Positions 34,677-52,411 of a DNA stretch of 64,000 bases are shown here, in pieces (within the stretch, counting starts at the first letter, position 1; every line of letters begins with the position of its first letter). This DNA is from Vicinamibacterales bacterium (GTDB taxonomy: Bacteria; Acidobacteriota; Vicinamibacteria; Vicinamibacterales; JAENWD01). The notes beneath the pieces were generated by a model that worked only from the letters and a program-made list of their open reading frames with translations, ran no database searches and was not told where the DNA came from. The position numbers and the translations under genes are program-made. The DNA lies in NCBI GenBank assembly GCA_036381155.1, contig DASVDJ010000196.1, positions 52,823 to 116,822 on the forward strand, written 5' to 3'.

Positions 34677-35126
34677 ATGCGACGACTCTGCGGATCACGG
34701 CCGGGACGCGTCGTCCCGGCCGCAGCGCTGGTCCTGGCAGCCGCCCTGTCGGCGGCTGCCGGCGCTCCCGACCCCATCACCGTCCGGCTCCTCCCGGCCA
34801 CGGTGATGGAACACAACGACGTGAAGGCCATGGTGACCGTCGAGGAACGGGCGGAGAACCGGCGCCTGGTCGTTTCGCTGGACGGGCCCGAGTTCTACTC
34901 CAGCACGCAGCGGACGCTCGACGGGAAGAAGGGACCCCGGAGCCACGAGTTCTTCTTCCGCGCCCTGCCCGCCGGCGTGTACGAGCTTCGCGTCACGGTC
35001 GAGGACGACCGGGGGCACACGGCGTCGGTTGCGCGGAACTTCCAGGTCCACGGCATGAGCCAGGAGGAAGAGGTCGTACCCACCGGCCGTCGACGGCGTC
35101 CTCCCGGGCAGCGCTTCCGGCCCTAG
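34677..35126 (+). CDS. Small secreted Ig-like protein, 1 nt after the receptor stop
   Basis: Signal MRRLCGSRPGRVVPAAALVLAAALSAAAG, then beta-rich VRLLPATVMEHNDVKAMVTV...GVYELRVTVEDDRGHTASV. Confidence 0.6.
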   Translation: MRRLCGSRPGRVVPAAALVLAAALSAAAGAPDPITVRLLPATVMEHNDVKAMVTVEERAENRRLVVSLDGPEFYSSTQRTLDGKKGPRSHEFFFRALPAGVYELRVTVEDDRGHTASVARNFQVHGMSQEEEVVPTGRRRRPPGQRFRP

Positions 35127-38100
35127 AAGCCTGGACGGACTCCGAAACTGAACAGCCAGCCGCGGTCGCGGTCGAGCGGCCGTACGGCCGCGAACTCCAG
35201 AACGGCGAAGCCCAGCGCGTTGACGCGCACCCCCGCGCCGGTACTGCGGATCCAGTCGTCACCGAAGGATGGGTTGCGGTCGCCGCTCCAGGCGAAGCCG
35301 GCGTCGAAGAACACCAGCCCCTCCACCGGAACCGGCCCGTACTCGAGCTCGCCGGTGAAGATCCCGACCAGCGGGAAGCGCACCTCGGCGTTGAGGACGG
35401 CGATGCCGTCGCCGAAGAGCCGGTCGACCTCCTGACAGGTGCTGTCCGCCGTCACCGTGCACTCGGAGACGCGGAAGGAATCCCATTCGTACCCGCGCAC
35501 GAGCGTCGGGTAGCCGAGGAACAGCGGCGTCAGGCGGGGGTCGTCGATGTCGCCGCCGAAACGTCCCAGCACGAGGCCGCGCCCGGCAAGCGTCAGCGGA
35601 CGCACGGGCATGTAGTACTGCCGGAAGTCGGCGAGGAGGCTGGTAAAGGTCAGCCCTCCGGCGGTCTGCGTCGCTTCGAGCCGGTAGCGCCGGCCGAGCA
35701 GCGGACTCGTCGGGCCGAAGATGCCGGTGTCGAAGACGAGCGCGGCGCTGGCCTCGGCCATGTTCACCGTGTCGAGCCCGGGAATGTCCTCGCGCGCCTC
35801 GCCGAGGAACTGGCCCGTCGCAAGGTCGAACGCCTGCGAGATCTGCTCGGCGCTGACGCCGATCGACCGCAGGCCACCGGTGAACTCGAACCGCTGCGCG
35901 CGACTGAACGGGTACTCCAGGACCCCTGACACCTGCCGGTAGTACTGCCGGAACTGCGTGATTTCGTCGACGACCGCGGGACGCCCGTCGATCATTTCGA
36001 GGCGCTGGGTCACGAAGCCGCTGCGGTACGAGAGCTGCTCGGCGGTGCCGCCCCACCCGAGGCGCCTCCGGCGATTCAGGTAGGCCAGCTGGCCCGAGAA
36101 GTCGCGGACGTCTCCCTGGATCTGCGCCGTCGCGCCCAGGAGGTGATCGCCGAGCAGATCGCTCCAGAGGAAGGACACGCCGCCGCCGAAATAGGTGCCG
36201 AACGCGTCGGTGCCGACCCCGACCGACGGCTGGCCGACGAACTCGAGCCCGAGGTTCGCCTGGTACGGCCGAACGGGGAACTCCTGCGGCGGCGGCAGGC
36301 CGGCCGTCGCGTTCGCCAGCACCCGCGCCACGTCGCCGTCGTCACGGCGGACCGGCGGCAGCGTCGCCGCGTCTGCACGGGTGTGCGCCGGCAGCTCCAC
36401 CGCCGCCGCATCGTCGAGGAGCATGACCTGGTAGGCGTTGCGCCAGAGCACCGAGAAGGCCACGCGCCCGCTCTTCGACGCGACGGACAGGGCCGGGCTG
36501 TTGTTCGTGATGCCGGTCGCGCCGGTCGCCAGCCGAGAGACCGGCACCACCTGCCCCGAATCGAGGCTCAACCGGAAGACGTCGCTGACGCCCTGCGGCG
36601 CGGCGATGAAGTAGAGCGTCCGGCCGTCGGGGCCCCACTGCGGGTTCATCTGCTTCGCGTCACGGAACGCCTCGGGCAGGGGCACGGGCCGGATCTCGCG
36701 CGTCCGGACATCCATGATGGCGAGCTTCAGCGGCCCGAACGTCAACGTCTTCAGGTCCGAGGAGAACCGCTCCGTCGCAAAGGCGATGTGCCGGCCGTCC
36801 GGCGACCAGGCCGGCTGCTGATCCGACAGCAGATCCCGTGTGACCCGCGTCAGCGTCTCGCTCTCGAACTCGTACAGGTACAGGTCGGTGACGCCACCCT
36901 GGATGGCGGAAAATGCCACGACCTTGCCATCGGGCGACAGCGCGGGGTGGAAGATCTCACCGAGCTCCCGGAGCCGGACATCCTCGACGGTGTCGCCGCT
37001 CTCGACGTCGACGACGGTGATGTGAGGCTGCCCGCGCTGGATGGACGAGAACGCGAACCGCCGGCCTTCGCCGTCCCACGAACCGGACGCGTTCACGAAC
37101 TGGAGGCTGTCGAGGTGCGGGTTGGTCGCGGAGCGCGACAGGCGGCGGATGATGCGGCCCGTGTCGGCCTCGGCCAGGTACAGGTCGATCGACAGGCGCG
37201 AGCGCGACGACAGGAACATCAGGCGGCGTCCATCAGGGCTCAGCGACGGGGCCACCGTGATCTCATCCTCGCTCTGGTCGGGATTGAGCGGCCGTCCCGC
37301 CTCGAGCGGCGGCCGGCGCGCCTGGATGATCCCGCCGTACGCCTCCCGGATGGCCGCATGCCACTGGTTGGAGAGCTCCTCTTCTTCGATCCCGGTCAAC
37401 CGCTCGAGGACGTCAATCGGATCGCCGGACACGGCCAGCCGGTACGCGTCTCCGACGATCCGGTCGCCCCACCGCCCGGCCAGATAGGACCAGAGCGCGT
37501 GGCCGTAGCGATACGGGAAGAACTCGGGGCGGGACAGCTGCGAGATGCGCGGCAGGTTCTCGTTCAGCATCGCGTCGCGCAGCCACATGGCGGTGTGCGG
37601 GTCGAACGGCCCGATTGAGAGGTACTCCGCCATTCCCTCGACGAACCACAGCGGCAGGTGCAGCCCGCGCGTCCGCGTGTTGGCCGCGATGTCGAACTGG
37701 AAGGCGTGCACGAGCTCGTGGCCGATCACGTGATCGGTGTCGGCCCCGCTGGCCCCGAACGGCAGGACGATGCGGCGCCGCAGCGCCTCGGTGAGCCCGC
37801 CGGTGCCCTCGCCGATCATCCCCTGGACGACGTTCGTCTGCTGGAAATGGGGGTGGCTGGCGTAGAGGATCAGCGGCTGGCGGCTCGACAGCTCGTGATC
37901 CAGCACGGCCGACAGCCGCATGTACCAGCGCTCGGCCATGCGGGCGGCATCGCGCGCCGCATCTACTTCCTTCTCGTAGTGGTAGATGTCGAAACGTTCG
38001 GTCTCCAGCACCTTGAAGTCGAACGTCTCGTAGCGGACCTTGTTGGGACCGAAGTACTGCGCGGAGGCGCCCGCGGACAATCCGAACCAGAGTGCGACCA

Positions 38101-38143
38101 GCAGGCCCGCGCGGGCCCACCAAGCGGTTCCGCCCGACCTCAT
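35123..38143 (-). CDS. Outer-membrane fusion protein: HExxH metallopeptidase-like domain + TolB/PD40-type beta-propeller + Omp85-like C-terminal barrel
   Basis: Signal peptide. HVIGHELVHAFQF (HExxH). PD40-like SPDGRRLMFLS, SPDGKVVAFSA, SPDGRHIAFAT, GPDGRTLYFIA. C-terminus ...GWLFSFGVRPGF ends in Phe. SD GGAGGGAG. Confidence 0.8.
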   Translation of the reverse strand: MRSGGTAWWARAGLLVALWFGLSAGASAQYFGPNKVRYETFDFKVLETERFDIYHYEKEVDAARDAARMAERWYMRLSAVLDHELSSRQPLILYASHPHFQQTNVVQGMIGEGTGGLTEALRRRIVLPFGASGADTDHVIGHELVHAFQFDIAANTRTRGLHLPLWFVEGMAEYLSIGPFDPHTAMWLRDAMLNENLPRISQLSRPEFFPYRYGHALWSYLAGRWGDRIVGDAYRLAVSGDPIDVLERLTGIEEEELSNQWHAAIREAYGGIIQARRPPLEAGRPLNPDQSEDEITVAPSLSPDGRRLMFLSSRSRLSIDLYLAEADTGRIIRRLSRSATNPHLDSLQFVNASGSWDGEGRRFAFSSIQRGQPHITVVDVESGDTVEDVRLRELGEIFHPALSPDGKVVAFSAIQGGVTDLYLYEFESETLTRVTRDLLSDQQPAWSPDGRHIAFATERFSSDLKTLTFGPLKLAIMDVRTREIRPVPLPEAFRDAKQMNPQWGPDGRTLYFIAAPQGVSDVFRLSLDSGQVVPVSRLATGATGITNNSPALSVASKSGRVAFSVLWRNAYQVMLLDDAAAVELPAHTRADAATLPPVRRDDGDVARVLANATAGLPPPQEFPVRPYQANLGLEFVGQPSVGVGTDAFGTYFGGGVSFLWSDLLGDHLLGATAQIQGDVRDFSGQLAYLNRRRRLGWGGTAEQLSYRSGFVTQRLEMIDGRPAVVDEITQFRQYYRQVSGVLEYPFSRAQRFEFTGGLRSIGVSAEQISQAFDLATGQFLGEAREDIPGLDTVNMAEASAALVFDTGIFGPTSPLLGRRYRLEATQTAGGLTFTSLLADFRQYYMPVRPLTLAGRGLVLGRFGGDIDDPRLTPLFLGYPTLVRGYEWDSFRVSECTVTADSTCQEVDRLFGDGIAVLNAEVRFPLVGIFTGELEYGPVPVEGLVFFDAGFAWSGDRNPSFGDDWIRSTGAGVRVNALGFAVLEFAAVRPLDRDRGWLFSFGVRPGF

Positions 38144-38177
38144 CAGAGCTCCCTCCGCGCAGTACCGGACGCAGCCG

Positions 38178-38438
38178 TCAGACGGTACGGCGGCGCCCGA
38201 CTACCATCCGGTAGATGCCGAGCAGCACCACGGCCCCGAGCAGCGACATCAGGAAGCCCGCAGCGTCATCCGGCCCGTAGAGCCCCAGCGCGCGGCCGAT
38301 GTAGCCCCCCACGACCGCCCCGACAATGCCCAGCAGGATCGTCACGATGATACCGCCGGGATCCCTGCCGGGCATCACGAGCTTCGCGATGGCGCCGACG
38401 ATGAGCCCGAAGATGATCCAGCCGATGATGCCGAACAT
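38178..38438 (-). CDS. GlsB/YeaQ/YmgE (transglycosylase-associated) family stress membrane protein
   Basis: MFGIIGWIIFGLIVGAIAKLVMPGRDPGGIIVTILLGIVGAVVGGYIG: family-typical sequence. Confidence 0.85.
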   Translation of the reverse strand: MFGIIGWIIFGLIVGAIAKLVMPGRDPGGIIVTILLGIVGAVVGGYIGRALGLYGPDDAAGFLMSLLGAVVLLGIYRMVVGRRRTV

Positions 38439-40508: not shown

Positions 40509-41321
40509 TCACGACGCCGGCGGGACCTCGACGTGGGCCGCGTCCTGCTCCGCTCCCCCCTTGGCGGGCGTGCCGACTGCTGGAGGACGCACGTGCTGCT
40601 CGACCAGTTCGAGTGCCTGACGGTAGCCGAGCGGCGTGCCGACGTCGACGTAGGCGCGTCCGGTCCGCACACCGGTTGCGGAGCCTCCTGCCTCGATGAA
40701 CGCGTGGATCAGTGTTCCGAGGTACTCGTCGCGGCAGGACCGTTCGTGCCAGAGCCGGCGCAGCGCAAGCAGGACGTGCCCCGGCATGCCCATCGCGCCC
40801 CAGATCCACCGCGAGCGCACGAGCGGCTGCTTCACGTCGATGCGGCGCACCGCTCCGCTTCCGTCCGTCTCGACGGCATCGAACAGCTCGGGGCGCTCCG
40901 ACGGGAACAGCAGGAGTCCGAGCCGGTCGCCCGGCAGCGTGCGCAGCGCGGGAATCGGGAACCAGACCGTGTCGGGCAGCCCGACCAGCACGCGGTCGTC
41001 GTCCCGGATGAGCGGCGCCGCCCGGAACACCGCATCGCAGAGCCCCGACGGGCGCGGTTGGACCACATAACAGACGGGACGCCCGAGCGCCGACCCGCCG
41101 TAGTACTCGAGGATGTCCGACTTTCCCGGTGCGATCACGAAGCAGAGGCGGTCGGCTCCGCCGGCGGCGAGGCGCTCGACCAGGAACTCGCTCACCGCGC
41201 GCGGGCGCTCGACGCCGCTCCCGTCGCGCCGGAACCCGACCGGCAGCAGCTCCTTCGAGAAGGCGAGCGGTTGAATGCGCGTGCCCGCCCCGGCCGCCGG
41301 CACGATGCCCCATACCGCCAT
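40509..41321 (-). CDS. Sugar-phosphate nucleotidyltransferase (RmlA/GalU-like fold)
   Basis: MAVWGIVPAAGAGTRIQPLAFSKELLPV (GxGTR loop); VDVGTPLGY near the C-terminus. Confidence 0.75.
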   Translation of the reverse strand: MAVWGIVPAAGAGTRIQPLAFSKELLPVGFRRDGSGVERPRAVSEFLVERLAAGGADRLCFVIAPGKSDILEYYGGSALGRPVCYVVQPRPSGLCDAVFRAAPLIRDDDRVLVGLPDTVWFPIPALRTLPGDRLGLLLFPSERPELFDAVETDGSGAVRRIDVKQPLVRSRWIWGAMGMPGHVLLALRRLWHERSCRDEYLGTLIHAFIEAGGSATGVRTGRAYVDVGTPLGYRQALELVEQHVRPPAVGTPAKGGAEQDAAHVEVPPAS

Positions 41322-41389
41322 CACGACCTCCAGGCGCCCACGACAGACGTGTCCGCGCGCACGCGCGCGGTGTCGGACGGTGCCGCACG

Positions 41390-41433: not shown

Positions 41434-42069
41434 GTGCTCGAGCCTCTGCTGGTGCTCGTCCGCCACGGCGACGTCGAACGCGGCGGCGACGTGCTCTGGG
41501 GCCGCAGCCCCGGCGTCGCGCTCACCGCGCACGGGCGACGTGCGATCGAGGCGCTGACGCCGGCGCTGCGAGGCCTGCGCGTGTCGCGTCTCGTGACGAG
41601 CCCGTGTCAGCGGGCCGTCGAGTCCGCCGCGCTGGTCTCGGATGCGCTTGGACTCCCGGTTGCCGCCGACGCGGGCTTTGACGAGTTCGACTACGGGGAC
41701 TGGAGCGGGCGTCCGTTCACGGCGCTGGCCCGCGATTCCCGCTGGCGGGCCTTCAACGAGGGTCGGGAGGACCGGACCGCGGCGCCCGGTGGCGAATCGG
41801 TCCTCGACTTCCAAACGCGCATTCGGCACTCACTCGATCGCCAGCTCCAGCACGCGACGGGCCGGACATGCATCGTCACGCACGCGGAGGTGGTGCGCGT
41901 CATCGTGCTCGACGCGCTCGGGCGGCCCCCCGCGGCGTGGGCCGAGGTGACGATACCGACCGCCTCGCTCACGCTGCTGCGCGGACCTTCGCGTGCGCGT
42001 CGGATCGTGGCCGTCGGGATTGGCGCGCGCGACGTCGCCGCACTCGCCGATACGCTGACCCTTCGGTAG
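41434..42069 (+). CDS. Histidine phosphatase (phosphoglycerate mutase-like) family protein
   Basis: LLVLVRHGDVE (RHG catalytic motif), SPCQRAVESA, THAEVVR. The start is uncertain (GTG 41434 or GTG 41452). Confidence 0.75.
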   Translation: MLEPLLVLVRHGDVERGGDVLWGRSPGVALTAHGRRAIEALTPALRGLRVSRLVTSPCQRAVESAALVSDALGLPVAADAGFDEFDYGDWSGRPFTALARDSRWRAFNEGREDRTAAPGGESVLDFQTRIRHSLDRQLQHATGRTCIVTHAEVVRVIVLDALGRPPAAWAEVTIPTASLTLLRGPSRARRIVAVGIGARDVAALADTLTLR

Positions 42070-42371: not shown

Positions 42372-42656
42372 TCAGTAGCTGCCCTGCCGGCTGAACTGAT
42401 CCGACCCGAGCTGCTTCACCAGCTTGTTGTAGATGCCGAGCATCAGGAACACGGGCGCCCACTGGCCGACGAACAGGCTGCCGTGCTTCTGTCCCATCGC
42501 CTGCATCGTCGCGGACGCGGTGATGGCTCCCAGTGCCGCCCAGAGGAACGTGTCCGAGGGAAGCTTCGCCGTCTGCTCCTCGATGCGACGCGCAACGGGC
42601 CCTTCCGTGTGCTGCGACTCGCCGGTCCGGGACATGCCCGCGTGCAGGTTCTCCAT
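42372..42656 (-). CDS. 94-aa small membrane protein
   Basis: Hydrophilic N-terminus, then FLWAALGAITASATMQAM and WAPVFLMLGIY hydrophobic segments. SD AGGAGGAGG. Confidence 0.65.
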   Translation of the reverse strand: MENLHAGMSRTGESQHTEGPVARRIEEQTAKLPSDTFLWAALGAITASATMQAMGQKHGSLFVGQWAPVFLMLGIYNKLVKQLGSDQFSRQGSY

Positions 42657-42731: not shown

Positions 42732-43607
42732 TCAGGCGTGACGGTACCGCCGCACCATGCGCAGGCAGAAGTCCGCGAACCTCGCCGGATCGCGCGGGGG
42801 ACTGGTGTGATGCGGCCGGATGCCGCACGACTCGGGTGTGAAGCAGAACGTCGCGGTCACCCGGAAGCGCGACAGCGCCGACATCTGCCGATCGAACCAT
42901 GCGTCCGCGCCGGGCCGGTGGCTGTCGGCCCAGCTCAATCCCGTGCGCAGGTATTCCACGCCGAGCTCGTCGAGCCACCGCACGGCGCAGTCGAGGCGAT
43001 GGTCCTCGAAGTGGAACCACTGGCAGATCCCCAGGTCGGGTGTATGCGCCGCGAACCGGGACAGCGCCCGTTTCGGCACCCCGTCCTCGCGAACCAGGCC
43101 CATGTAGAAGTGGCGATAGTACGAGGACCCTTCCGCCTCGCGATGGCGGGTGGTGGCCGGCCATGCCTTCGGCAGATCGAAGAGGCTGTACCAGTGAATC
43201 CGCGGCGTTCGTCCGATCACGAGCTCCGCCGTGCGCTGCAGGCCGAACTCCTGGACTTCCTCGGCGCCGAAGCTCGACGCCCCCGCCTCGGAGATCCACA
43301 CCGGCAGCGTGGTCAGCGACGCAATCGCCTCGAGCCGCGACGGCCACTCGTCAATCGTCCAGTGGTTCCAGTCGAGCGGGAAACCGTGAATCGCGACGGC
43401 GTCGACGGCCTCGAGCACGCCGTGCCCCTGCAGCAGCTGCAGGAACTGCGGGTCGATCGGCGACATCCCGCCGAGCACGATCGGCACGTCCCGCGTCTCG
43501 CTCCGGACCGCGTGGCTGGCCAGTCGCACCATGTCGCTGAAGAGCCGCCAGTCGGGATCGATCTGGAAGTCCCAGTGGGACAGGTTGTTGGGCTCGTTCC
43601 AGAGCAT
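42732..43607 (-). CDS. Clan GH-A-like glycoside hydrolase; TIM-barrel strand order appears circularly permuted
   Basis: Starts MLWNEPNNLSHW (acid/base NEP motif at residues 4-6). LPVWISEAGASS is the nucleophile-type motif. The C-terminal 95 aa (GICQWFHF...LGVEYLRTGLSWAD...RVTATFCFTP...FADFCLRMVRRY) look like barrel strands 1-3. An alternative GTG start lies at 43619. Confidence 0.7.
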   Translation of the reverse strand: MLWNEPNNLSHWDFQIDPDWRLFSDMVRLASHAVRSETRDVPIVLGGMSPIDPQFLQLLQGHGVLEAVDAVAIHGFPLDWNHWTIDEWPSRLEAIASLTTLPVWISEAGASSFGAEEVQEFGLQRTAELVIGRTPRIHWYSLFDLPKAWPATTRHREAEGSSYYRHFYMGLVREDGVPKRALSRFAAHTPDLGICQWFHFEDHRLDCAVRWLDELGVEYLRTGLSWADSHRPGADAWFDRQMSALSRFRVTATFCFTPESCGIRPHHTSPPRDPARFADFCLRMVRRYRHA

Positions 43608-43614
43608 CACCGCT

Positions 43615-44388
43615 TCAAGCACGGCCCTGCTCCGTGACGATGCGTGGCACGTCCGGCCCGGGCCCGGACGGCCGGCAGAGATACACCTCGGGCACGGGGT
43701 TGTCGACGATCTCGAACCCGGCGCTGCGCAGCATCGCCTCGGCGCAGGCACGGTTCGGCACCCACCAGTTCGTCCAGTCCTGCGCGAACTGCCGCTCGAT
43801 GAACTGCAGCCGCGGGAAGCCCGGCGTGGAGAACGGGGTGCTGTCGTGGAAATCGTAGTCCGGCTGGACCGGCGCGATCACGGCATCGCCACGAATCAGC
43901 GACTGGAACACCAGCAGGCGCCCGACGGCGTGACGCCGCAGCAGGTCCAGCGCGAGCAGCGGATGGCGGAGATGGTAGAGCACGCCCATGAAGAGCACGA
44001 GGTCGAAGGGGCCGCCGAGCTCCGCGACCTCGTAGACGGACCGCTCCTGGAACTCGACGTCCTCGTACCCGAGCCGTGCAGCCGCGAAGCGGGCCTGCCG
44101 CACGTACCGCGGGTCGGCGTCGATGCCGAGGACGTGCGCGGCGCCGCGGCGCTTCATCTCGAACGCGTAGAAGCCGGCGTTGCAGCCGACATCCAGCACA
44201 CGCCAGCCGCGCAGATCTTCGGGGAGACGGTGGGCGAAGTGCCGGAAGAATGTCGAGGGGAAATCGCCCAGATAGTGGCCGGGAGCGGTCTCCACACCGT
44301 CGAGCCGGAGATTGTGGAACCACGGGCCCAGCGCGTCGATGTGCGATCGGACCTCGTCTGGCTGCATGGATGGTGTCGCGTGCGCCAT
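43615..44388 (-). CDS. Class I SAM-dependent methyltransferase (CmoB-like architecture)
   Basis: GPWFHNLRLDG...WRVLDVGCNAGFYAFEM (motif I)...LVLFMGVLYHLRHPLLAL...NWWVPN. Confidence 0.8.
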   Translation of the reverse strand: MAHATPSMQPDEVRSHIDALGPWFHNLRLDGVETAPGHYLGDFPSTFFRHFAHRLPEDLRGWRVLDVGCNAGFYAFEMKRRGAAHVLGIDADPRYVRQARFAAARLGYEDVEFQERSVYEVAELGGPFDLVLFMGVLYHLRHPLLALDLLRRHAVGRLLVFQSLIRGDAVIAPVQPDYDFHDSTPFSTPGFPRLQFIERQFAQDWTNWWVPNRACAEAMLRSAGFEIVDNPVPEVYLCRPSGPGPDVPRIVTEQGRA

Positions 44389-44417
44389 GCGGACCTCAGC
44401 GCCTCCGCGCGCCCGGG

Positions 44418-44433
44418 TGCAATCGACGTTCCG
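44418..44433 (-). promoter_or_regulatory. Sigma-54-type -24/-12 promoter (P9)
   Basis: Minus strand CGGAACGTCGATTGCA. It lies 29 nt upstream of the ATG at 44388; SD GGAGG is in between. Confidence 0.6.
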
Positions 44434-44677
44434 CCCCGTCCGCACACGCGCGTGCGCAAGCCCGTGCGTGTGCGCGCCCGTTGTTCGCATCCCTGACAGG
44501 GCTGTTCATCTCCGATGCGACTGCCCCGCCGCGTGTGGCAGCACGTCGCGGAGTCTTCAACGGCCCGCGCGCGTTCCGCGTGCGCCGCGCGCGAGCCGGC
44601 CCGCTGCGTCATCCCGCACCCGCGACGTCCGAATCGTTGACGAATCAACAAAGATGGCGGTCGCTGCATACGTTGCG

Positions 44678-44743: not shown

Positions 44744-45856
44744 ATGCGGATCCTGATCACGGGCGGCGCGGGATTCATCGGGTCTCACCTCGCCGATCAC
44801 CTGCTCGAGCACGGCTATGCCGTGCGCGTGCTCGACAGCCTCGTTCCGCAGGTGCATCCCGATCGGACGCGCCCCGACTATCTCCATCCGCGCGTCGAGC
44901 TCGTGCACGGCGACGTCCGCGATCCGGCTGCCGTGCGTCTGGCCCTCACCGGCGCGGACGCCGTCGTGCACTTCGCCGCACGCGTCGGCGTCGGCCAGAG
45001 CATGTACGAGATTGCGGAGTACACCGGCGTCAACAACGTCGGCACCGCCGTGCTGCTCGAGGCGTTGATCGACCGGCGGGTCCGCCGGCTCGTCGTGGCC
45101 TCGAGCATGAGCCTCTACGGCGAAGGCCTCTACCGTGAGGCGTCCGGCTCGTTCGTCACCGATGCCGGGCGCTCACCCGGACAGCTGCGCCGGGGAGACT
45201 GGGAGCCGCGCGGCGCCGACGGCCGGCCGCTCGTGCCGGTGCCGACGCCCGAGTCGAAGCCGCCGCGCCTCGCCTCCGTCTACGCGCTGTCGAAGTTCGA
45301 CCAGGAACAGCTCGCCCTGATCGTCGGGCGGACCTACGACATCCCGACCGTCGCGCTCCGGTTCTTCAACGTCTACGGCACGCGACAGGCGCTTTCGAAC
45401 CCGTACACGGGCGTGCTCGCGATCTTCGCGGCGCGGCTGCTGAACCGGCGTCCGCCGCTCATCTTCGAGGACGGCGCGCAGCAGCGCGATTTCGTCAGCG
45501 TGCACGACGTCGTGCGGGCCTGCCGCCTCGCGCTCGAGCGGCCGGCCGATGACGTCGCGGGACGTGCGTTCAACATCGGCAGCGGCGTCGCGCACAGCGT
45601 CGCGGAGGTCGCCGAGCTGCTCGCCGGCGCGCTCGGCGTGCCGCTCGCGCCGGAGCGCACCGGCCGGTACCGCGCAGGCGACATCCGCCATTGCTTCGCG
45701 GATCTCGCCGCCGCGCGGACCGGTCTGGGCTACGAGCCGCAGGTGTCGCTCGACCAGGGACTCGTGGAGCTCGCGGACTGGCTCGCGACGCAGGCGCCGG
45801 AGGATCTCGTGCCGGCGGCGAGCCTCGAGCTCGAACGCCGGGGGCTCACGGCATGA
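44744..45856 (+). CDS. NAD-dependent nucleotide-sugar epimerase/dehydratase (with internal insertion)
   Basis: MRILITGGAGFIGSHL; YALSKFDQE (YxxxK). A roughly 45-aa insertion precedes the catalytic Tyr. Confidence 0.85.
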   Translation: MRILITGGAGFIGSHLADHLLEHGYAVRVLDSLVPQVHPDRTRPDYLHPRVELVHGDVRDPAAVRLALTGADAVVHFAARVGVGQSMYEIAEYTGVNNVGTAVLLEALIDRRVRRLVVASSMSLYGEGLYREASGSFVTDAGRSPGQLRRGDWEPRGADGRPLVPVPTPESKPPRLASVYALSKFDQEQLALIVGRTYDIPTVALRFFNVYGTRQALSNPYTGVLAIFAARLLNRRPPLIFEDGAQQRDFVSVHDVVRACRLALERPADDVAGRAFNIGSGVAHSVAEVAELLAGALGVPLAPERTGRYRAGDIRHCFADLAAARTGLGYEPQVSLDQGLVELADWLATQAPEDLVPAASLELERRGLTA

Positions 45857-46950
45857 CCGTCAGGACCGACACTCACGACGCTCCGGACGCGACGTCGGCC
45901 GGCCGCGTGCTGGTCACCGGCGGTGCCGGCTTCATCGGCACCAATCTCGCCGGCCGGCTGGCCGCCTCGGGCCGGCCGGTCGTCGTGCTCGACACGCTCA
46001 GCCGCGCCGGCGTCGAGCGCAACGCGCGCTGGCTGCGCGAGACGTACGGCGACCGCATCGAGCTGGTCGTCGGCGACGTCAGGCAGCCCGCGGCGCTCGA
46101 GCGCGCGCTGGACGGTGTGTCCGAGGTCTATCACCTCGCCGCACAGGTCGCCGTGACGACGAGCCTCGACGACCCGCTGCATGATTTCGACGTCAACGCG
46201 CGCGGGACGCTGACGCTGCTCGAGGCGATCCGCCGCATGCGCTCCTTCCCCACGCTGCTGTTCACGTCGACCAACAAGGTGTACGGCGCCCTCGAGGACG
46301 TCCCGCTGGCGCGGGCCGGCCGGCGCTATCGCCCCGTCGACGAGACGCTCTGCTGCCATGGCGTCGACGAAGAGCGCCCGCTCGCCTTCCACAGCCCGTA
46401 TGGCTGCTCGAAGGGGTCCGCGGATCAGTACGTGCTGGACTACGCGCGCACGTTCGGCCTGCCGGCGGCGGTGCTGCGCATGAGCTGCATCTACGGCCCG
46501 CATCAGCACGGCAACGAAGATCAGGGCTGGGTCGCACACTTCCTGAAGCGCGCGCTGGCGGGCGAGCCGCTCGTGATCTACGGCGACGGCTGCCAGGTCC
46601 GCGACGTGCTCTACATCGACGATCTCGTCGACGCGTTCCTCGCGGCGCGCGCGGCCATCGGACGGATTGCCGGACGCGCCTTCAACATCGGCGGCGGGCC
46701 GGACCGCGCCGTGAGCCTGCTGGAGCTGATCGATCGGCTGGAGGGACTGACGCGCCGCACGGTGGCGTGCTCGATGGCGCCCTGGCGTGCCGCCGATCAG
46801 CGCTATTACGTCTCCGATTGCCGGCGCTTCGCGCGGGCCACGGGCTGGACGGCACAGGTGTCCGTGGACGAGGGGCTCACGCGTCTGGCCGGGTGGCTGC
46901 AGCCCGCCGGGACGCCGGACGCCGTGCCGCGCCGGCTCGCGGTCTCGTGA
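45853..46950 (+). CDS. NAD-dependent epimerase, CDP-paratose/tyvelose 2-epimerase-like
   Basis: VLVTGGAGFIGTNL; YGCSKGSADQYVLDYARTFGL; GNEDQGWVAHF. ATGA overlap with the upstream gene. Confidence 0.8.
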   Translation: MTVRTDTHDAPDATSAGRVLVTGGAGFIGTNLAGRLAASGRPVVVLDTLSRAGVERNARWLRETYGDRIELVVGDVRQPAALERALDGVSEVYHLAAQVAVTTSLDDPLHDFDVNARGTLTLLEAIRRMRSFPTLLFTSTNKVYGALEDVPLARAGRRYRPVDETLCCHGVDEERPLAFHSPYGCSKGSADQYVLDYARTFGLPAAVLRMSCIYGPHQHGNEDQGWVAHFLKRALAGEPLVIYGDGCQVRDVLYIDDLVDAFLAARAAIGRIAGRAFNIGGGPDRAVSLLELIDRLEGLTRRTVACSMAPWRAADQRYYVSDCRRFARATGWTAQVSVDEGLTRLAGWLQPAGTPDAVPRRLAVS

Positions 46951-46952
46951 TC

Positions 46953-48062
46953 ATGGGCACACCGACTCCGGCTCACGTCCTGATGACCGCGGATGCCGTC
47001 GGCGGCGTGTGGACCTATGCCACCACGCTTGCCGAAGGTCTTGGCGCCCGCGGCGTCCGGATTACGCTCGCCGTCCTCGGCCCGCCGCCGCGGCCGGAGC
47101 AGCTCGACGCCGTGCGAAGGCTGCCGTTCGTCGACGTGTGCCACGCCCGGTTCGCGCTGGAGTGGATGCCCGGTGCCGAGCGGGACGTCGAGCGCTCCGC
47201 TGAGTGGGTACTGCGGCTGGTCCAGGAGCGCCGGCCCGACGTCGTCCAGATCAACGGCTACGCGCTCGCGACCTATCCGTTGGGCTGTCCGACGTTCCTG
47301 GTTGCGCACTCGTGCGTGTGCTCGTGGTGGCGTGCCGTGCACGGGTGCCAGGCGCCACACGCGTGGCGCACGTATCGACAGCGCGTGGACATCGGCCTGC
47401 AGCGTGCCAGCCGGGTCGTGGCGCCGACCGCGGCGATGCTCCGCGCGCTCCGTCGGGAGTTCCGGTGGAAGGGGGACGGGCTCGTGATCCACAACGGCCT
47501 GCCACCACCCGGCGCGCCGCCGGCGTCACCCCGCGTCGGGGTGCTGGCCGCCGGCCGCGTGTGGGATGCCGCCAAGAACATCGCCGTGCTCGACACGGTG
47601 GCGCCTGACGTCGACGGCCCGGTGGCCATCGCCGGCGACGCCAGCAGTCCCGACGGCAGCCAGCGGTTGCCGCGTCACGCCGAGTGCCTGGGATCGCTGC
47701 CGAGAGACGCGGTGCTGGCCCGGATGACCGAGACTGCCGTCTACGCCCTGCCGGCCCGGTACGAGCCGTTCGGGCTCTCCGTGCTCGAGGCCGCACAGCG
47801 CGGCTGTGCGCTCGTGCTCGGCGACATCTCGACGCTGCGCGAGCTCTGGGAGGGAGCCGCGGTGTTCGTGCAGCCCGACGACCGGGTGGGGCTCACCCGC
47901 GTGCTGAACCGGCTCGTGCACGATCCCGCGGCGCGCCAGCGGCTGGCCGAGGCCGCCCGGCTGCGCGCGACGCGCTACACGCTCGCCGCGATGGTCGACG
48001 GGTACCTGCGTTTGTATCGTGCGCTCGCGCGCACCGGGGAGGCGGTTCCGTGCGCGTCGTAG
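46953..48062 (+). CDS. GT-B glycosyltransferase, GT4-like
   Basis: ADAVGGVWTY N-terminus; EPFGLSVLEAAQRGCALVLGDISTLRE (E-x7-E region). Confidence 0.8.
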   Translation: MGTPTPAHVLMTADAVGGVWTYATTLAEGLGARGVRITLAVLGPPPRPEQLDAVRRLPFVDVCHARFALEWMPGAERDVERSAEWVLRLVQERRPDVVQINGYALATYPLGCPTFLVAHSCVCSWWRAVHGCQAPHAWRTYRQRVDIGLQRASRVVAPTAAMLRALRREFRWKGDGLVIHNGLPPPGAPPASPRVGVLAAGRVWDAAKNIAVLDTVAPDVDGPVAIAGDASSPDGSQRLPRHAECLGSLPRDAVLARMTETAVYALPARYEPFGLSVLEAAQRGCALVLGDISTLRELWEGAAVFVQPDDRVGLTRVLNRLVHDPAARQRLAEAARLRATRYTLAAMVDGYLRLYRALARTGEAVPCAS

Positions 48063-49177
48063 TCCTGTGCCACTCGCTGCGGTCGGACTGGAACCACGGC
48101 AACGCGCACTTCCTGCGCGGCATCTGCCGCGACCTGCTGCGGCGCGGGCACGAGGTCGTCGTCCTCGAGCCCGCGAATGGCTGGAGCGCGCTGAACCTGA
48201 CACGGGAAGCCGGCATGGCCGGGCTCGACGCCTATCGCGCGGCGTACCCGGAACTGGAGTCGTCCGTCTACGACCCGTCGCGCTTCGATGCCGACGCCGC
48301 GCTCGACGGCGCCGATCTCGTCATCGTTCACGAGTGGACCGATCCCGCCATCGTGCACGCCGTCGGCCGGTACCGGCGCAGGGCCTGCTGCGTCCTGCTG
48401 TTCCACGACACGCATCATCGCAGCGTCTCCAGCCCGGACGAGATCGACCGGCTCGACCTGTCGGACTACGACGGCGTGCTCGCCTTTGGCGCGGCCGTCG
48501 CCGACCAGTACGTCGCCCGCCGCCTGGCGGCGAACGTCTGGGTCTGGCACGAGGCCGCCGACGTCTCGGTGTTCGCGCCGCGCGAGGGCGTGGCGCGCGA
48601 GGCCGACGTCGTCTGGATCGGCAACTGGGGCGACGACGAGCGGACGGCGGAGCTGCACGAGTTCCTGCTCGAGCCTGTACGAGCGCTCGGGCTCGGCGGC
48701 TCCGTGCACGGCGTCCGCTACCCGGCCGGCGCACGCGAGTCGGTCGCACGCGCGGGGCTCGCCTACCACGGCTGGCTGCCCAATCACGCCGTGCCGGAGG
48801 TCTTCGCGCGGCATCGCGTGACGGTGCACATCCCGCGCCGCCCCTACGCCGACGCGCTGCCCGGGATCCCGACCATCCGGGTCTTCGAGGCGCTCGCCTG
48901 CGGCATCCCGCTCGTCTGCGCGCCCTGGACCGACAGTGAGGGCCTGTTCACGCCTGGTGCCGACTATCTGGTGGCGCGCGACGGCGCCGACATGCGGGCC
49001 CACCTGCGGTCGCTGACGTCGGACGCCGCGCTGGCCGATGCGATCGCACGGCACGGGCGCCACACGGTGCTGACGAGGCACACCTGCCGCCATCGGGTCG
49101 ACGAACTGCTGGCCATCGTCTCGTCGCTGGCCGGCGCGGCGGCTGCGACGCCGCACCGCGAGGTCGAGGTGTTCTGA
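48050..49177 (+). CDS. CgeB-like glycosyltransferase paralog 1 (Glyco_trans_1_2-type C-terminus)
   Basis: GTG start after GGGGAGG. VRVVVLCHSLRSDWNHGNAHFLRGI; RVFEALACGIPLVCAPWTDSEGLFTPGADYLVA. Confidence 0.75.
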   Translation: MRVVVLCHSLRSDWNHGNAHFLRGICRDLLRRGHEVVVLEPANGWSALNLTREAGMAGLDAYRAAYPELESSVYDPSRFDADAALDGADLVIVHEWTDPAIVHAVGRYRRRACCVLLFHDTHHRSVSSPDEIDRLDLSDYDGVLAFGAAVADQYVARRLAANVWVWHEAADVSVFAPREGVAREADVVWIGNWGDDERTAELHEFLLEPVRALGLGGSVHGVRYPAGARESVARAGLAYHGWLPNHAVPEVFARHRVTVHIPRRPYADALPGIPTIRVFEALACGIPLVCAPWTDSEGLFTPGADYLVARDGADMRAHLRSLTSDAALADAIARHGRHTVLTRHTCRHRVDELLAIVSSLAGAAAATPHREVEVF

Positions 49178-50352
49178 TGCGGCCGACGCTGGCCTTCTTC
49201 GGATCGAGTCTGGTGTCCGCGTACTGGAACGGCGCCGCCACGTACTACCGCGGCATCCTCCGCGCGCTGGACACGCGCGGATGGCGCGCGACCTTCTTCG
49301 AGCCGGACGCCTTTGGACGGCAGGCCCATCGCGACATCCCCGATCCGTCGTGGGCGCGCGTCCTGGTGTACCAGCCGACACCTGACGGACTGCAGCGCGC
49401 GCTCGATGAAGCCGCGAGTGCCGACGTCCTGGTCAAGGCGAGCGGCGTCGGCGTCTTCGATGCCGAGCTCGAGGCCGCTCTGCCGGCCATGCGCCGGCCC
49501 GGGCAGATCTGCCTCTTCTGGGACGTCGACGCGCCCGCGACGCTGGAGCGGCTGGACCGGACACCGGACGACCCGCTCCGCGCCCGGATTCCGTCGTTCG
49601 ATCTCGTGCTGACGTACGGCGGCGGCCCGCCGGTGGTGGCACTGTACCGCGCGCTCGGCGCTCGCGACTGCGTGCCCATCTACAACGCCCTGGATCCGGA
49701 CACCCACCATCCGGTCCCGCCGCACGACGCCTATCGCGCCGACCTGGCGTTCCTCGGCAACCGCCTGCCCGATCGCGAGGAGCGGGTGCGCGAGTTCTTC
49801 CTCTCGGCGGCGGCCGCGCGGCCGGCCCGCTCGTTCCTGCTTGGCGGCAACGGCTGGCACCCGGACGACGTGCCTCCGAACGTGACCGTGCTCGGGCACG
49901 TGCCGACGGCCGCGCACAACACGTTCAACTGCTCGCCGCTCGCCGTGCTGAACATCAACCGCTCCAGCATGGCGCGGATCGGCTTCTCGCCGGCCACACG
50001 CGTGTTCGAGGCGGCAGGGGCCGGCGCCTGTCTCGTCACCGATGCGTTCGAGGGTGTCGAGGCGTTCCTCTCGCCCGGCGAGGAGATTCTCGTCGCGGAC
50101 AGCGGCGCCGACGTGATCGGTCTCCTCGACGCGCTCACGCCGGAGCGCGCCCGGGCCATCGGGCGCGCCGCGCGCGCCCGCGTGCTGGCCGCGCACACGT
50201 ACGAACACCGGGTCGTCCAGCTCGAACGCGTGCTGGACGCCGCACTCACCGGATCGCCTCGATGCAGCCAACGCTCCGCTTCGTCTTTCTCGGCCTCTCC
50301 GTCACGTCCTCGTGGGGAAACGGCCACGCCACGACGTACCGCGGCCTCGTAA
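49177..50352 (+). CDS. CgeB-like glycosyltransferase paralog 2
   Basis: MRPTLAFFGSSLVSAYWNGAATYYRGIL; RVFEAAGAGACLVTDAFEGVEAFLSPGEEILVA. The 3' end overlaps the next gene by 91 nt. Confidence 0.75.
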   Translation: MRPTLAFFGSSLVSAYWNGAATYYRGILRALDTRGWRATFFEPDAFGRQAHRDIPDPSWARVLVYQPTPDGLQRALDEAASADVLVKASGVGVFDAELEAALPAMRRPGQICLFWDVDAPATLERLDRTPDDPLRARIPSFDLVLTYGGGPPVVALYRALGARDCVPIYNALDPDTHHPVPPHDAYRADLAFLGNRLPDREERVREFFLSAAAARPARSFLLGGNGWHPDDVPPNVTVLGHVPTAAHNTFNCSPLAVLNINRSSMARIGFSPATRVFEAAGAGACLVTDAFEGVEAFLSPGEEILVADSGADVIGLLDALTPERARAIGRAARARVLAAHTYEHRVVQLERVLDAALTGSPRCSQRSASSFSASPSRPRGETATPRRTAAS

Positions 50353-51461
50353 CCGCCCTGGCACGGCGCGGACACGACGTGCTCTTCCTCGAGCGCGACG
50401 CGCCGTGGTACGCGCGGCACCGTGATCTGACGGAGCTGGCCGGCGCCCGCGTCGAGCTGTACGGATCGGTCGTCGATCTCCGCCGCCGGTTCACCAGGGA
50501 GATCCAGCGCGCGCACATCGTCGTGGTCGGGTCGTACGTGCCGGAAGGGCGCCGGGTCGGGCGCTGGGTGCGGGCGGCGGCGCGCGGCATCGTTGCCTTC
50601 TACGACATCGACACGCCGGTGACGCTCGCGACGCTCGAGACGGATCGCTGTGAGTACCTGTCGCGGCGCCTGCTGCCTGCCTACGACCTGTACCTGTCCT
50701 TCAGCGGCGGCCCCGCGCTCCGCCGGCTCAACCGGCTCGGCGCACGCATGGTCCGTCCGCTGTACTGCGCGGTCGATCCAGCGCAGTACCTGCCGGCCGG
50801 CGGGCCTTCCGCGTGGGACCTGGGCTATCTCGGCACGTACGCCGCGGATCGGCAGCCCGCGCTCGAGTCGCTGCTGCTCCGGGTCGCGGACGGCTGGCCC
50901 GACGGGCGCTTCGTGGTCGGCGGTCCGCTGTATCCGCCCGACATCCACTGGCCCGCGAACGTGGAGCGCACCGAGCATGTCCCGCCGGCGGATCACAGCC
51001 GCTTCTACGGCCGCCAGCGGTTCACGCTGAACCTGACGCGCGCCGACATGCGCCGGCTCGGACACTCCCCGAGCGTCCGGCTGTTCGAAGCCGCGGCGTG
51101 CGGCGCCGCCATCCTGACCGATGACTGGAGCGGGCTCGACGAGTTCTTCACGCCCGGCATCGACCTGGTCCGCGTGCGATCCGCGCGCGACGTCGTCGAG
51201 GCACTGCGTGACATGCCCGAAGAGCGGCGCGTCGCGCTCGGGTGCTCGGCGCGGGCGCGCGTGCTGGCCGCCCACACGGCCGACGACCGCGCGCGAAGGC
51301 TCGAAGAGTACGCGTTCGAGCTGCTCGAGACCCGGGCGGTCGCGTCCCGGGCGGCCGACATGTCCCGCGGGCGGCCGCGCCGACGCTCGCAGCCGCCCGC
51401 GCGACCACGAGTCGCGGCCGTGCAGCGGCAGCTCGGAATTGACGAGGACCTCACGGCATGA
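50262..51461 (+). CDS. CgeB-like glycosyltransferase paralog 3
   Basis: MQPTLRFVFLGLSVTSSWGNGHATTYRGL; RLFEAAACGAAILTDDWSGLDEFFTPGIDLVRV. Confidence 0.75.
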   Translation: MQPTLRFVFLGLSVTSSWGNGHATTYRGLVTALARRGHDVLFLERDAPWYARHRDLTELAGARVELYGSVVDLRRRFTREIQRAHIVVVGSYVPEGRRVGRWVRAAARGIVAFYDIDTPVTLATLETDRCEYLSRRLLPAYDLYLSFSGGPALRRLNRLGARMVRPLYCAVDPAQYLPAGGPSAWDLGYLGTYAADRQPALESLLLRVADGWPDGRFVVGGPLYPPDIHWPANVERTEHVPPADHSRFYGRQRFTLNLTRADMRRLGHSPSVRLFEAAACGAAILTDDWSGLDEFFTPGIDLVRVRSARDVVEALRDMPEERRVALGCSARARVLAAHTADDRARRLEEYAFELLETRAVASRAADMSRGRPRRRSQPPARPRVAAVQRQLGIDEDLTA

Positions 51462-52411
51462 TGCGCGCGGCGGTCCTCACCGGCGACGGCGGCGTGACGC
51501 TGACGCGCTGTGCCCCTCCCGAGCCCGGTCCGGGCCAGCTGCGCGTGCGGCTCGAAGGGTCGGGTGTCTGCGGCTCCAATCTGCCGGTCTGGGAAGGGCG
51601 ACCGTGGTTCGAGTATCCCCGCCCGCCCGGATCTCCGGGCCACGAGGGCTGGGGCGTCGTCGATGCCGCGGGACCGGGCACGGAGTCGACCCTGGTGGGC
51701 CGCCGGGTCGCGCTGCTCTCCGAACATGCGTTCGCGGAGTGGGATCTCGCGCCGCCGTCGGCCGTCGTGCCCGTCCCGGACGCGCTGGCCGGGCGCGCCT
51801 GTCCTGCCGAGCCGCTGGCCTGCGCAGTGAACGTCATGCACCGCGCCGCCATCCACGACGGCGACGTCGTCGTCGTGCTCGGCGTCGGGTTTCTCGGGGC
51901 GTCGCTGGTGGCGCTGGCGTCGAGCGCGGGGGCCCGGGTCGTCGCCGCGTCGCGCCGGCCGTTCGCGCGCCGGCTGGCGTCGCAGCTTGGTGCGGCGCAC
52001 GTCTGTCCGCTCGAGCACGACGCGCTCGTGAACGCCGTCGCGGCGCTGTCGGGCGGCCAGCTTGCCGACTGCGTGATCGAGGCGGCCGGCACCCAGGAGA
52101 CGCTCGATCTGGGCGGTGAGCTGACGCGCGTGCGCGGACGGCTCGTCGTCGCCGGCTATCACCAGGACGGCCCGCGCCTCGTCAACCTGCAGCTCTGGAA
52201 CTGGCGCGGGATCGACGTGGTCAACGCGCACGAACGCGACGAGGCGGTGTACGTCGAGGGGATGCGGCAGGCCCTGGCGCTCGCGGCCGACGGCGTCCTG
52301 CCGCTCGATCTGCTGATCACGCACGTCCTCCCGCTCGACGGCATCGACCAGGCATTCCACCTCATGGCGGAACGCCCGGATGGCTTCCTGAAGGCTGTTG
52401 TCGTCTGTTGA
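51458..52411 (+). CDS. Zinc-dependent MDR-family alcohol/polyol dehydrogenase
   Basis: GVCGSNLPVWEG...PGHEGWGVV (GHE zinc site)...VVVLGVGFLG (Rossmann). Confidence 0.8.
   Translation: MMRAAVLTGDGGVTLTRCAPPEPGPGQLRVRLEGSGVCGSNLPVWEGRPWFEYPRPPGSPGHEGWGVVDAAGPGTESTLVGRRVALLSEHAFAEWDLAPPSAVVPVPDALAGRACPAEPLACAVNVMHRAAIHDGDVVVVLGVGFLGASLVALASSAGARVVAASRRPFARRLASQLGAAHVCPLEHDALVNAVAALSGGQLADCVIEAAGTQETLDLGGELTRVRGRLVVAGYHQDGPRLVNLQLWNWRGIDVVNAHERDEAVYVEGMRQALALAADGVLPLDLLITHVLPLDGIDQAFHLMAERPDGFLKAVVVC

Follow-up and report, generated by a model that had tools for sequence, protein, structure and literature searches.

How can a glycosidase carry, at its very N-terminus, a catalytic motif that belongs to the middle of its fold? 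This question is raised by an open reading frame (ORF) in a stretch of 64,000 nucleotides from a Vicinamibacterales bacterium (assembly GCA_036381155.1, contig DASVDJ010000196.1, positions 52,823-116,822), to which we refer as the window. The ORF runs on the minus strand from 43607 to 42732 and reads MLWNEPNN...RMVRRYRHA* (FADFCLRMVRRYRHA* at its C-terminus), and the Asn-Glu-Pro (NEP) acid/base motif of glycoside hydrolase (GH) clan GH-A is thereby found on the first strand of the protein. An initial annotation had proposed that the (beta/alpha)8 barrel is circularly permuted, and every motif that it listed is present in the translation, in the order given there. Our analysis leaves very little doubt that this glycosidase barrel is a natural circular permutation, in which the units b4-b8 come first and b1-b3 follow (b denoting the strands and a the helices of the barrel), and we are nearly as confident of the wider statement that combines the permutation with an evolutionary scenario and a conserved genomic context.

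The evidence from sequence was obtained with three profiles, namely that of the family as it stands (36 sequences), a de-permuted version in which the C-terminal ~100 residues were moved to the front (17 members), and one of relatives with normal order (13 sequences). When the single sequence was compared with the sequences of the PDB by phmmer, PslG was the sole match, and it was matched by two stretches in swapped order. The family profile found PslG with E=4e-8, with family positions 200-293 aligning to PslG 25-128 and positions 3-191 aligning to PslG 132-329; just 3 PslG residues separate the two matched pieces. De-permutation gave one collinear stretch instead (7-285 on PslG 25-320), and it lifted the score from 36 to 50 bits, with the E-value going from 4e-8 to 2e-12. 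The de-permuted profile also weakly matched GH39 beta-xylosidases (E 0.002-0.06), and several of these matches cross the artificial junction. The same gain was seen with hhalign against the normal-order relatives, where the native family aligned over 197 columns (E 1e-50, score 348) and the de-permuted family end to end over 287 columns, with 37% identity (E 1.3e-82, score 553). Like the match to PslG, these alignments lie far outside the range of chance.

At the junction itself, the joined ends, ..FADFCLRMVRRYRHA+MLEAVMLWNEPNN (N-terminus MLEAVML|WNEPNN), can be compared with the canonical ..YADFVxxxxxRYGxxFxxVEL|WNEPNN, and the two differ in spacing by at most one residue. When the C-terminus is joined to the N-terminus, the canonical order is restored, as had been suggested. 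The possibility that the C-terminal ~95 amino acids are an unrelated domain does not hold either, since they align to b1-a3 of PslG (25-128) and represent strands 1-3. Furthermore, non-permuted homologues do exist, both as standalone proteins of 309-346 amino acids and as fusions of ~590-690 amino acids, and they are collinear with the de-permuted family over the 287 columns. Instead of the normal sequential unit order of clan GH-A, b1 to b8, the protein has b4-b8 followed by b1-b3, and its parts are as follows.

42732..43622, minus strand: complete gene of the PslG-like GH-A barrel, almost certainly circularly permuted; 296 amino acids, GTG start, TGA stop at 42732-42734
43044..43622, minus strand: residues 1-193, units b4/a4 to b8/a8; aligns with PslG 132-329 and with columns 115-314 of the normal-order relatives
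43590..43598, minus strand: Asn9-Glu10-Pro11, the clan GH-A acid/base motif at the end of b4; invariant in 36/36 sequences and aligned to the NEP of PslG
43287..43289, minus strand: Glu112, the predicted nucleophile at the end of b7, in the motif W-I-S-E-A-G; invariant in the 36-sequence alignment
43112..43165, minus strand: residues 153-170 (AWPATTRHREAEGSSYYR), the loop after b8; near-invariant and confined to the permuted clade
43029..43043, minus strand: residues 194-198 (TPDLG), the link from the ancestral a8 to the ancestral N-terminal tail and b1
42735..43028, minus strand: residues 199-296, units b1/a1, b2/a2 and b3/a3; aligns with PslG 25-128 and, by tblastn, with the normal-order locus L083

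The b4-b8 part corresponds to the C-terminal two thirds of the barrel in normal-order enzymes. Its NEP motif aligns with that of the normal-order relatives as well as with that of PslG, and Glu112, which sits at the end of the strand formed by residues 108-113, aligns with the Glu of WSTEWG in PslG and of WITEVG in the normal-order relatives. The link carries, ahead of ICQWFHF, an LG that the normal-order relatives likewise have at their N-terminus, and the coverage of PslG stops at family position 191 and resumes at 200. At the other end, the protein terminates 3 residues past the RRY at the end of helix a3. In the family alignment, the loops after every strand are almost fully conserved, and Asn9, Glu10, Pro11 and Glu112 are invariant. 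The columns W154-R170 are invariant or near-invariant across phyla, and the normal-order relatives differ in sequence there. Weak phmmer matches of the loop AWPATTRHREAEGSSYYR to phage gateway proteins (8FVH_M and 9B42_J, E about 0.1) were judged to be due to chance.

The residue numbers used here depend on the start codon. The ATG at which the ORF had been begun, with NEP at residues 4-6, places the motif correctly on the first strand, but the gene most likely starts 15 nucleotides further upstream, at the GTG at 43622 (MLEAVMLWNEPNN). This is favored because 77 of 80 homologous loci share a start codon 7 codons ahead of the W of WNEPNN (N-terminus M[IV][ED][AS]V[MK][LF]WNEPNN), and because the NCBI model of the same protein from a Vicinamibacterales metagenome-assembled genome (P0001) likewise has 296 amino acids. 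The acid/base Glu thus becomes residue 10 rather than 5, and it is still on the first strand of the protein. With the GTG, the gene overlaps the TGA stop of the upstream methyltransferase gene (43615-43617) by 8 nucleotides, 43615-43622 (GTGCTTGA), which suggests translational coupling of methyltransferase and glycosidase. Since the methyltransferase ends at this TGA, nothing N-terminal can have been lost, and the earlier remark that there is no room for a missing N-terminal piece holds. The first residues form a barrel strand and the protein therefore has no signal peptide; it consists of a single domain and is presumably cytoplasmic.

Structure prediction, which had been proposed as a check, returned a TIM (triosephosphate isomerase) barrel in the order b4, b5, b6, b7, b8, b1, b2, b3 rather than in the normal N-to-C order. 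The AlphaFold model of the window protein (predicted local distance difference test, pLDDT, 86.5; predicted template modelling score, pTM, 0.88) has eight strands with a helix after each, and the identities of the strands were assigned by alignment to PslG and the normal-order relatives. The elements in the model are:

residues 2-7: strand b4
residues 48-53: strand b5
residues 75-80: strand b6
residues 108-113: strand b7
residues 142-145: strand b8
residues 185-193: helix a8
residues 197-200: strand b1
residues 224-230: strand b2
residues 254-260: strand b3
residues 279-294: helix a3

As a control, we modeled the normal-order relative P0170 (pLDDT 92.5, pTM 0.90), which shows b1 (9-13), b2, b3, a3 (95-111) and b4 (114-117) directly ahead of WNEPNN, and then the remaining units. 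Foldseek aligns structures sequentially, such that the test of strand order lies in the contrast between the permuted and the normal-order model when both are compared with the PDB. For both, the best match was PslG (5BX9). The control matched it with E 5e-17 over 330 columns (template modelling score by query, TMq, 0.75) and had 393 matches with E<=1e-3, whereas the permuted model matched it with E 1.6e-4 over 212 columns (TMq 0.49) and had 7 such matches; its E-value to PslG is thus weaker by about 13 orders of magnitude. The matches listed for the control belong to clan GH-A (GH39, GH30, GH2, GH53, GH1, GH5, GH10 and GH42), and those of the permuted model comprise PslG, GH10, GH2, GH128 and other TIM barrels. 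Such a contrast is to be expected of a permutation.

The permuted form is by no means confined to the window. A homologue search returned at least 8000 database proteins of about 295 amino acids, the best 120 of which have 289-326 amino acids and 70-100% identity. In a scan of genomes it was found in at least 599 species genomes from more than 10 phyla, with 67-74% identity to the window protein. The groups include Acidobacteriota, Gemmatimonadota, Verrucomicrobiota, Nitrospirota, Planctomycetota, Desulfobacterota, Armatimonadota, Rhodothermales and Binatia, the Myxococcota (complete chromosomes of Archangium and Sorangium, Myxococcus, Anaeromyxobacteraceae), and Alpha-, Beta- and Gammaproteobacteria (Azospirillum, Ramlibacter, Steroidobacteraceae). 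More divergent permuted members have 42-52% identity (P0123, P0125, P0128, P0129 and P0143).

It was also observed that the glycosidase keeps 67-74% identity even across phyla as far apart as Acidobacteriota, Verrucomicrobiota, Myxococcota and Proteobacteria, and that its neighbors in the gene cluster are less conserved (methyltransferase ~55%, nucleotidyltransferase ~60%, CgeB-like proteins 35-64%; loci L003-L082). This pattern suggests either a very strong constraint on the glycosidase or a horizontal spread of the cluster.

The normal-order relatives emerged from a profile search of the protein library, which gave 2755 representatives with E<=1e-3. Many of the best 150 of these have 309-346 or ~590-690 amino acids and are matched by the N-terminal part of the family from about residue 113 onward. 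They are either standalone (e.g., P0170 and P0239) or fusions (e.g., P0226 and P0254), and they have 31-38% identity to the permuted form. Both forms share the motifs GICQWFHF, LRTGISWAD, TPPS, PPR, YADF, LWNEPNN, VLGGMSPID, VHGFP, WITE.G and YWYSL.DL. The normal-order relatives differ from the permuted clade in that they lack its invariant AWPATTRHREAEGSSYYRHF loop, and in that they are more divergent among themselves, with a mean column identity of 40% as compared to 69% in the permuted family.

In this context, it is important to consider where the gene resides. The genes around it in the window are the following.

40509-41333, minus strand: sugar-phosphate nucleotidyltransferase (Pfam)
41464-42069, plus strand: histidine phosphatase (Pfam)
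42372-42656, minus strand: putative small membrane protein, an ORF of 94 amino acids with a hydrophobic C-terminal half
43615-44490, minus strand: TIGR04290 (meth_Rta_06860) S-adenosylmethionine (SAM)-dependent methyltransferase (NCBIfam, 356 bits against a cutoff of 300)
44780-45856, plus strand: short-chain dehydrogenase/reductase (SDR) epimerase/dehydratase 1 (Pfam/NCBIfam)
45853-46950, plus strand: SDR epimerase/dehydratase 2 (Pfam/NCBIfam)
46956-48062, plus strand: glycosyltransferase of family 4 (GT4) (Pfam/NCBIfam)
48059-49177, plus strand: CgeB-like (PF13524) glycosyltransferase (Pfam/NCBIfam)
49177-50352, plus strand: CgeB-like (PF13524) glycosyltransferase (Pfam/NCBIfam)
50262-51461, plus strand: CgeB-like (PF13524) glycosyltransferase (Pfam/NCBIfam)
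51458-52411, plus strand: Zn-dependent alcohol dehydrogenase (Pfam/NCBIfam)
52408-53484, plus strand: Gfo/Idh/MocA oxidoreductase (Pfam/NCBIfam)
53418-54542, minus strand: fourth CgeB-like (PF13524) glycosyltransferase (Pfam/NCBIfam)

The genes from 44780 to 54542 are divergently transcribed from the glycosidase, apart from the last CgeB-like gene, which lies on the minus strand. Across the 80 homologous loci, the methyltransferase is present in 65 and nearly always directly upstream of the glycosidase, and CgeB-like glycosyltransferases (62/80), the nucleotidyltransferase (53/80) and the histidine phosphatase (30/80) are found nearby; the usual order is glycosyltransferases, nucleotidyltransferase, methyltransferase, glycosidase. 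By its gene content and by the adjacency of the methyltransferase, the window locus belongs to this TIGR04290-methyltransferase sugar cluster. The ORF of 94 amino acids directly downstream of the glycosidase had no match in Pfam and no tblastn match in the 80 loci, and it is on the latter account not part of the conserved cluster. Full-text literature searches returned nothing relevant on the TIGR04290 or CgeB-like cluster. Further away in the window, a minus-strand ORF of 1025 amino acids (35123-38200) combines PD40/WD40-like beta-propeller repeats, a DUF6055 region and a C-terminal domain of the Omp85 superfamily, which is an unusual combination.

The cluster also connects the two forms of the barrel. 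The long normal-order relatives are barrels fused to a CDP-paratose-2-epimerase-like SDR (P0215, P0226, P0234, P0252, P0253, P0254, P0256 and P0265), and this fusion is a Rosetta-stone link of the glycosidase to the epimerase step. At locus L083, the SDR part of the fusion (the whole of which spans L083:8001-10058) is 56% identical to the second epimerase of the window (45853-46950), and the surrounding cluster is orthologous to that of the window, with identities of 63% for SDR1, 56% for SDR2, 48% for GT4, 59-63% for the CgeB-like proteins and 49% for the methyltransferase. The glycosidase of L083, which is fused to SDR2, has the normal order: by tblastn, window residues 186-290 match nucleotides 8025-8351 and residues 2-184 match nucleotides 8370-8903, swapped and 18 nucleotides apart. 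Since this fusion sits in an orthologous cluster, the permuted and the normal-order form occupy the same pathway. P0254 alone gave an orthologous cluster among the contexts of relatives that were examined.

In an unrooted neighbor-joining tree of de-permuted and normal-order sequences, the two forms were split in 191 of 200 bootstraps, and a single permutation event would therefore fit the sequence data. Since normal order is shared by PslG and the other GH-A families, it is the permuted order that is derived. Very probably, the permutation happened a single time, in a normal-order ancestor whose gene already lay in the same conserved sugar-biosynthesis cluster, with the nucleotidyltransferase, the TIGR04290 methyltransferase, the two SDR epimerases, the GT4 and the CgeB-like glycosyltransferases. 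Fusion of the normal-order glycosidase to the second epimerase is seen in some lineages, and in the permuted lineage the glycosidase is the standalone last gene after the methyltransferase.

Several observations weigh against the reading as a whole. A distance tree rooted with PslG was unstable, with monophyly of the clade in 38-52% of the bootstraps. A tandem-duplicate protein with two barrels was not found among the best 120 homologues or the best 150 representatives, where the long matches were either fusions with the epimerase or frameshifted chimeras that join methyltransferase and glycosidase. Of the standalone proteins with normal order, P0170, P0239, P0243 and P0201 have unrelated surroundings or come from contigs that are too short, and because of the unrelated surroundings, orthology across the whole normal-order group is not established. 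Residues 154-168, in the invariant loop, have a pLDDT of <50 in the AlphaFold model, and part of the active-site face of the model is uncertain as a consequence. Finally, the genes annotated around the cluster include no identified exporter gene, which hints at an intracellular product.

As for the chimeras, frameshifted gene calls occur among the high-scoring proteins (P0122, P0134, P0136, P0137, P0164, P0230 and P0233). Four of them (P0122, P0134, P0136 and P0137) run from the methyltransferase into the glycosidase, and Arg/Ala/Pro-rich off-frame stretches interrupt otherwise good matches. These database proteins are assembly or calling artifacts, and neither fusions nor evolutionary intermediates.

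What kind of enzyme, then, is the permuted barrel? It has the features of clan GH-A, with a (beta/alpha)8 fold in the model, the NEP acid/base motif on b4 and a Glu on b7. Since the catalytic pair is intact, it is, judging from sequence, rather probably a retaining glycosidase or transglycosidase with Glu10 as the acid/base and Glu112 as the nucleophile, though we hold this with clearly less assurance than the permutation itself.

Curated libraries are of little help in placing it further. The only Pfam match of the native protein is PF11790 (13 bits, residues 67-143), which is below threshold and rises to 17.5 bits upon de-permutation, and NCBIfam gave no match to the native protein. The GH39 model of Pfam matched neither the native nor the de-permuted nor the normal-order forms, and no Pfam or NCBIfam model reached its threshold with any of the three. 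The normal-order relatives thus are equally devoid of models, and for this reason these libraries cannot classify the group. The best database matches carry no precomputed Pfam domain or PF11790 only, and the labels on the copies range from "hypothetical" to "beta-xylosidase" (a name given by the Joint Genome Institute, JGI) and "GH5 family".

A comparison with GH39, GH5 and GH51 had been proposed as a check; the nearest relative turned out to be PslG, a divergent member of GH39, and not a typical enzyme of any of the three families. PslG of Pseudomonas aeruginosa (5BX9, 4ZN2, 9G17) is the best match in both sequence and fold, at ~24% identity. The two proteins share the clan GH-A barrel with NEP on b4 and a Glu nucleophile on b7, and both are encoded inside a glycan-biosynthesis cluster, PslG being the endo-glycosidase of the Psl exopolysaccharide operon. 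They differ in that PslG has the normal b1-to-b8 order and a solved chain of 416 residues, of which ~25-329 are aligned, whereas the window protein is a permuted bare barrel of 296 amino acids. PslG furthermore carries a beta-sandwich domain at its C-terminus and a membrane anchor at its N-terminus, and in the window glycosidase there is neither a signal nor an anchor. An accessory beta-sandwich domain packed against the barrel is a feature of GH39, and it is absent here, since all 296 residues are taken up by the barrel in the AlphaFold model.

Similarity to GH39 is thus carried by PslG (E=4e-8 native, 2e-12 de-permuted), and the beta-xylosidases of the XynB group (1PX8, 1W91, 4EKJ) reach an E of only 0.002-0.06, over the a3-b4 region and once the family has been de-permuted. 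The chains of these xylosidases have ~500 residues, and the window family is far shorter and ends with the barrel. The similarity to XynB is too weak for a xylosidase specificity to be inferred.

As a permuted barrel, the protein invites comparison with the GH70 glucansucrases, to which natural cases of permuted TIM barrels among glycosidases are, to our knowledge, essentially confined. The break in GH70 also lies beside unit 3, the first element of the chain being helix a3 and the last strand b3. The likeness is limited to the permutation, however: GH70 belongs to another clan, has alpha-glucan chemistry and Asp/Glu/Asp catalysis, and consists of large secreted multidomain proteins with a U-shaped chain path, whereas the window glycosidase is a small single-domain GH-A protein with catalytic glutamates on b4 and b7. 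Neither GH13 nor GH70 was found among the listed Foldseek matches or in any of the other PDB, Pfam and Foldseek searches, and all specific matches belong to clan GH-A. In GH70, which belongs to clan GH-H, the permuted (beta/alpha)8 barrel can be set against normal-order GH13 and the intermediates GtfB/C/D (PMC4919382, PMC5216370). We also considered MmpH, which acts in the recycling of mycobacterial methylmannose polysaccharide and has an (alpha/alpha)6 barrel (PMC9883506); homology was rejected on account of the different fold, and the likeness is at most functional.

By analogy with the role of PslG in Psl, the glycosidase would act on the methylated glycan or glycoconjugate that the cluster produces, by trimming, recycling or priming it. 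A different view would be that the fold is permuted as described and no longer acts as a hydrolase, but as a sugar-binding or scaffold subunit or as a dedicated transglycosylase of the biosynthetic machinery. The cluster is biosynthetic rather than catabolic, the protein has no signal peptide, its conservation of 67-74% across phyla seems high for a degradative glycosidase, the permuted clade has an invariant loop of its own, and the normal-order relatives are fused to an epimerase, all of which can be cited in its favor. However, Asn9, Glu10 and Glu112 are invariant in all 36 sequences and aligned with the catalytic motifs of PslG, and a role restricted to binding is disfavored because loss of the catalytic residues would be expected in a protein that only binds. 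Moreover, PslG itself is an active hydrolase that is encoded in a biosynthetic operon (PMC11912335). We therefore regard a non-hydrolytic role as rather unlikely, though it is the likeliest of the alternatives.

The new chain ends lie in the a3-b4 loop, and a new link of ~5 residues connects a8 with b1. Going by general knowledge of the TIM barrel, this loop and this connection are found on the face away from the active site, and on this reading the permutation would leave the catalytic face untouched.

The shortness of this link could also be taken to mean that chains swap domains in a dimer or oligomer, each barrel being made up of b4-b8 from one chain and b1-b3 from another. It is true that the AlphaFold model is that of a monomer only, and that an obligate assembly could explain why the protein is so highly conserved across phyla. 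Yet AlphaFold closes the barrel within one chain (pTM 0.88), the joined ends match the length of the ancestral a3-b4 loop within one residue, and no specific pointer to swapping was seen. In normal TIM barrels, the N- and C-termini are neighbors, and for this reason a short a8-b1 link suffices. An intramolecular permuted barrel is hence the reading that we retain, and swapping strikes us as very improbable.

That the gene is an artifact or a decayed gene (a glycosidase truncated at its N-terminus and extended by an unrelated C-terminal piece, an assembly error, or what a frameshift has left of two tandem genes), as the partial sub-threshold match to PF11790 and the methyltransferase chimeras among metagenome calls (P0122, P0134, P0136 and P0137) might suggest, is already refuted and has next to no probability left, given that the same architecture of 289-297 amino acids is found in thousands of proteins and at least 599 genomes, complete Archangium and Sorangium chromosomes included, that the C-terminal part shares homology with b1-a3 both in PslG and in the normal-order relatives, and that the coding region has conserved start and stop positions.

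TIM barrels are well known to tolerate circular permutation, which has been studied at length by engineering, and clan GH-A is the largest of the glycosidase clans. In full-text literature searches, no paper came up that describes a permuted barrel of GH-A, GH39 or PslG-like type, and the CIRPIN survey of permutations from 2026 mentions neither glycosidases nor barrels in its main text. These searches thus gave no earlier report of a GH-A family permuted in nature, nor of one that is as widespread and as strongly conserved and has a normal-order counterpart in the same cluster.

Taking all of this together, it is conceivable that we are dealing with the first natural circularly permuted (beta/alpha)8 barrel to be recognized in clan GH-A, that it arose once and spread across more than 10 phyla under unusually strong constraint, and that it has a normal-order sister in the same pathway. 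The permutation may have accompanied a split from the epimerase fusion and a re-coupling to the methyltransferase, and it may have given rise to an invariant loop at the active site, and thereby to a new specificity, in an intracellular methylated-glycan pathway. We propose this joint reading tentatively, as a whole that we would give somewhat less than an even chance.

For the annotation of bacterial genomes, the family exposes a blind spot, in that thousands of copies carry uninformative or mixed labels, and it may be under-counted in surveys of carbohydrate-active enzymes (CAZymes) in Acidobacteriota, Gemmatimonadota, Myxococcota and Verrucomicrobiota, which are soil phyla. The glycosidase also flags a widespread and uncharacterized sugar-modification cluster. 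Beyond this, the permuted and normal-order forms make up a compact, single-domain pair at ~35% identity in orthologous clusters, and thereby a good natural system in which to see how a barrel copes with displaced chain ends, how a rearrangement of this kind comes to be fixed, and whether it alters folding, assembly or specificity.

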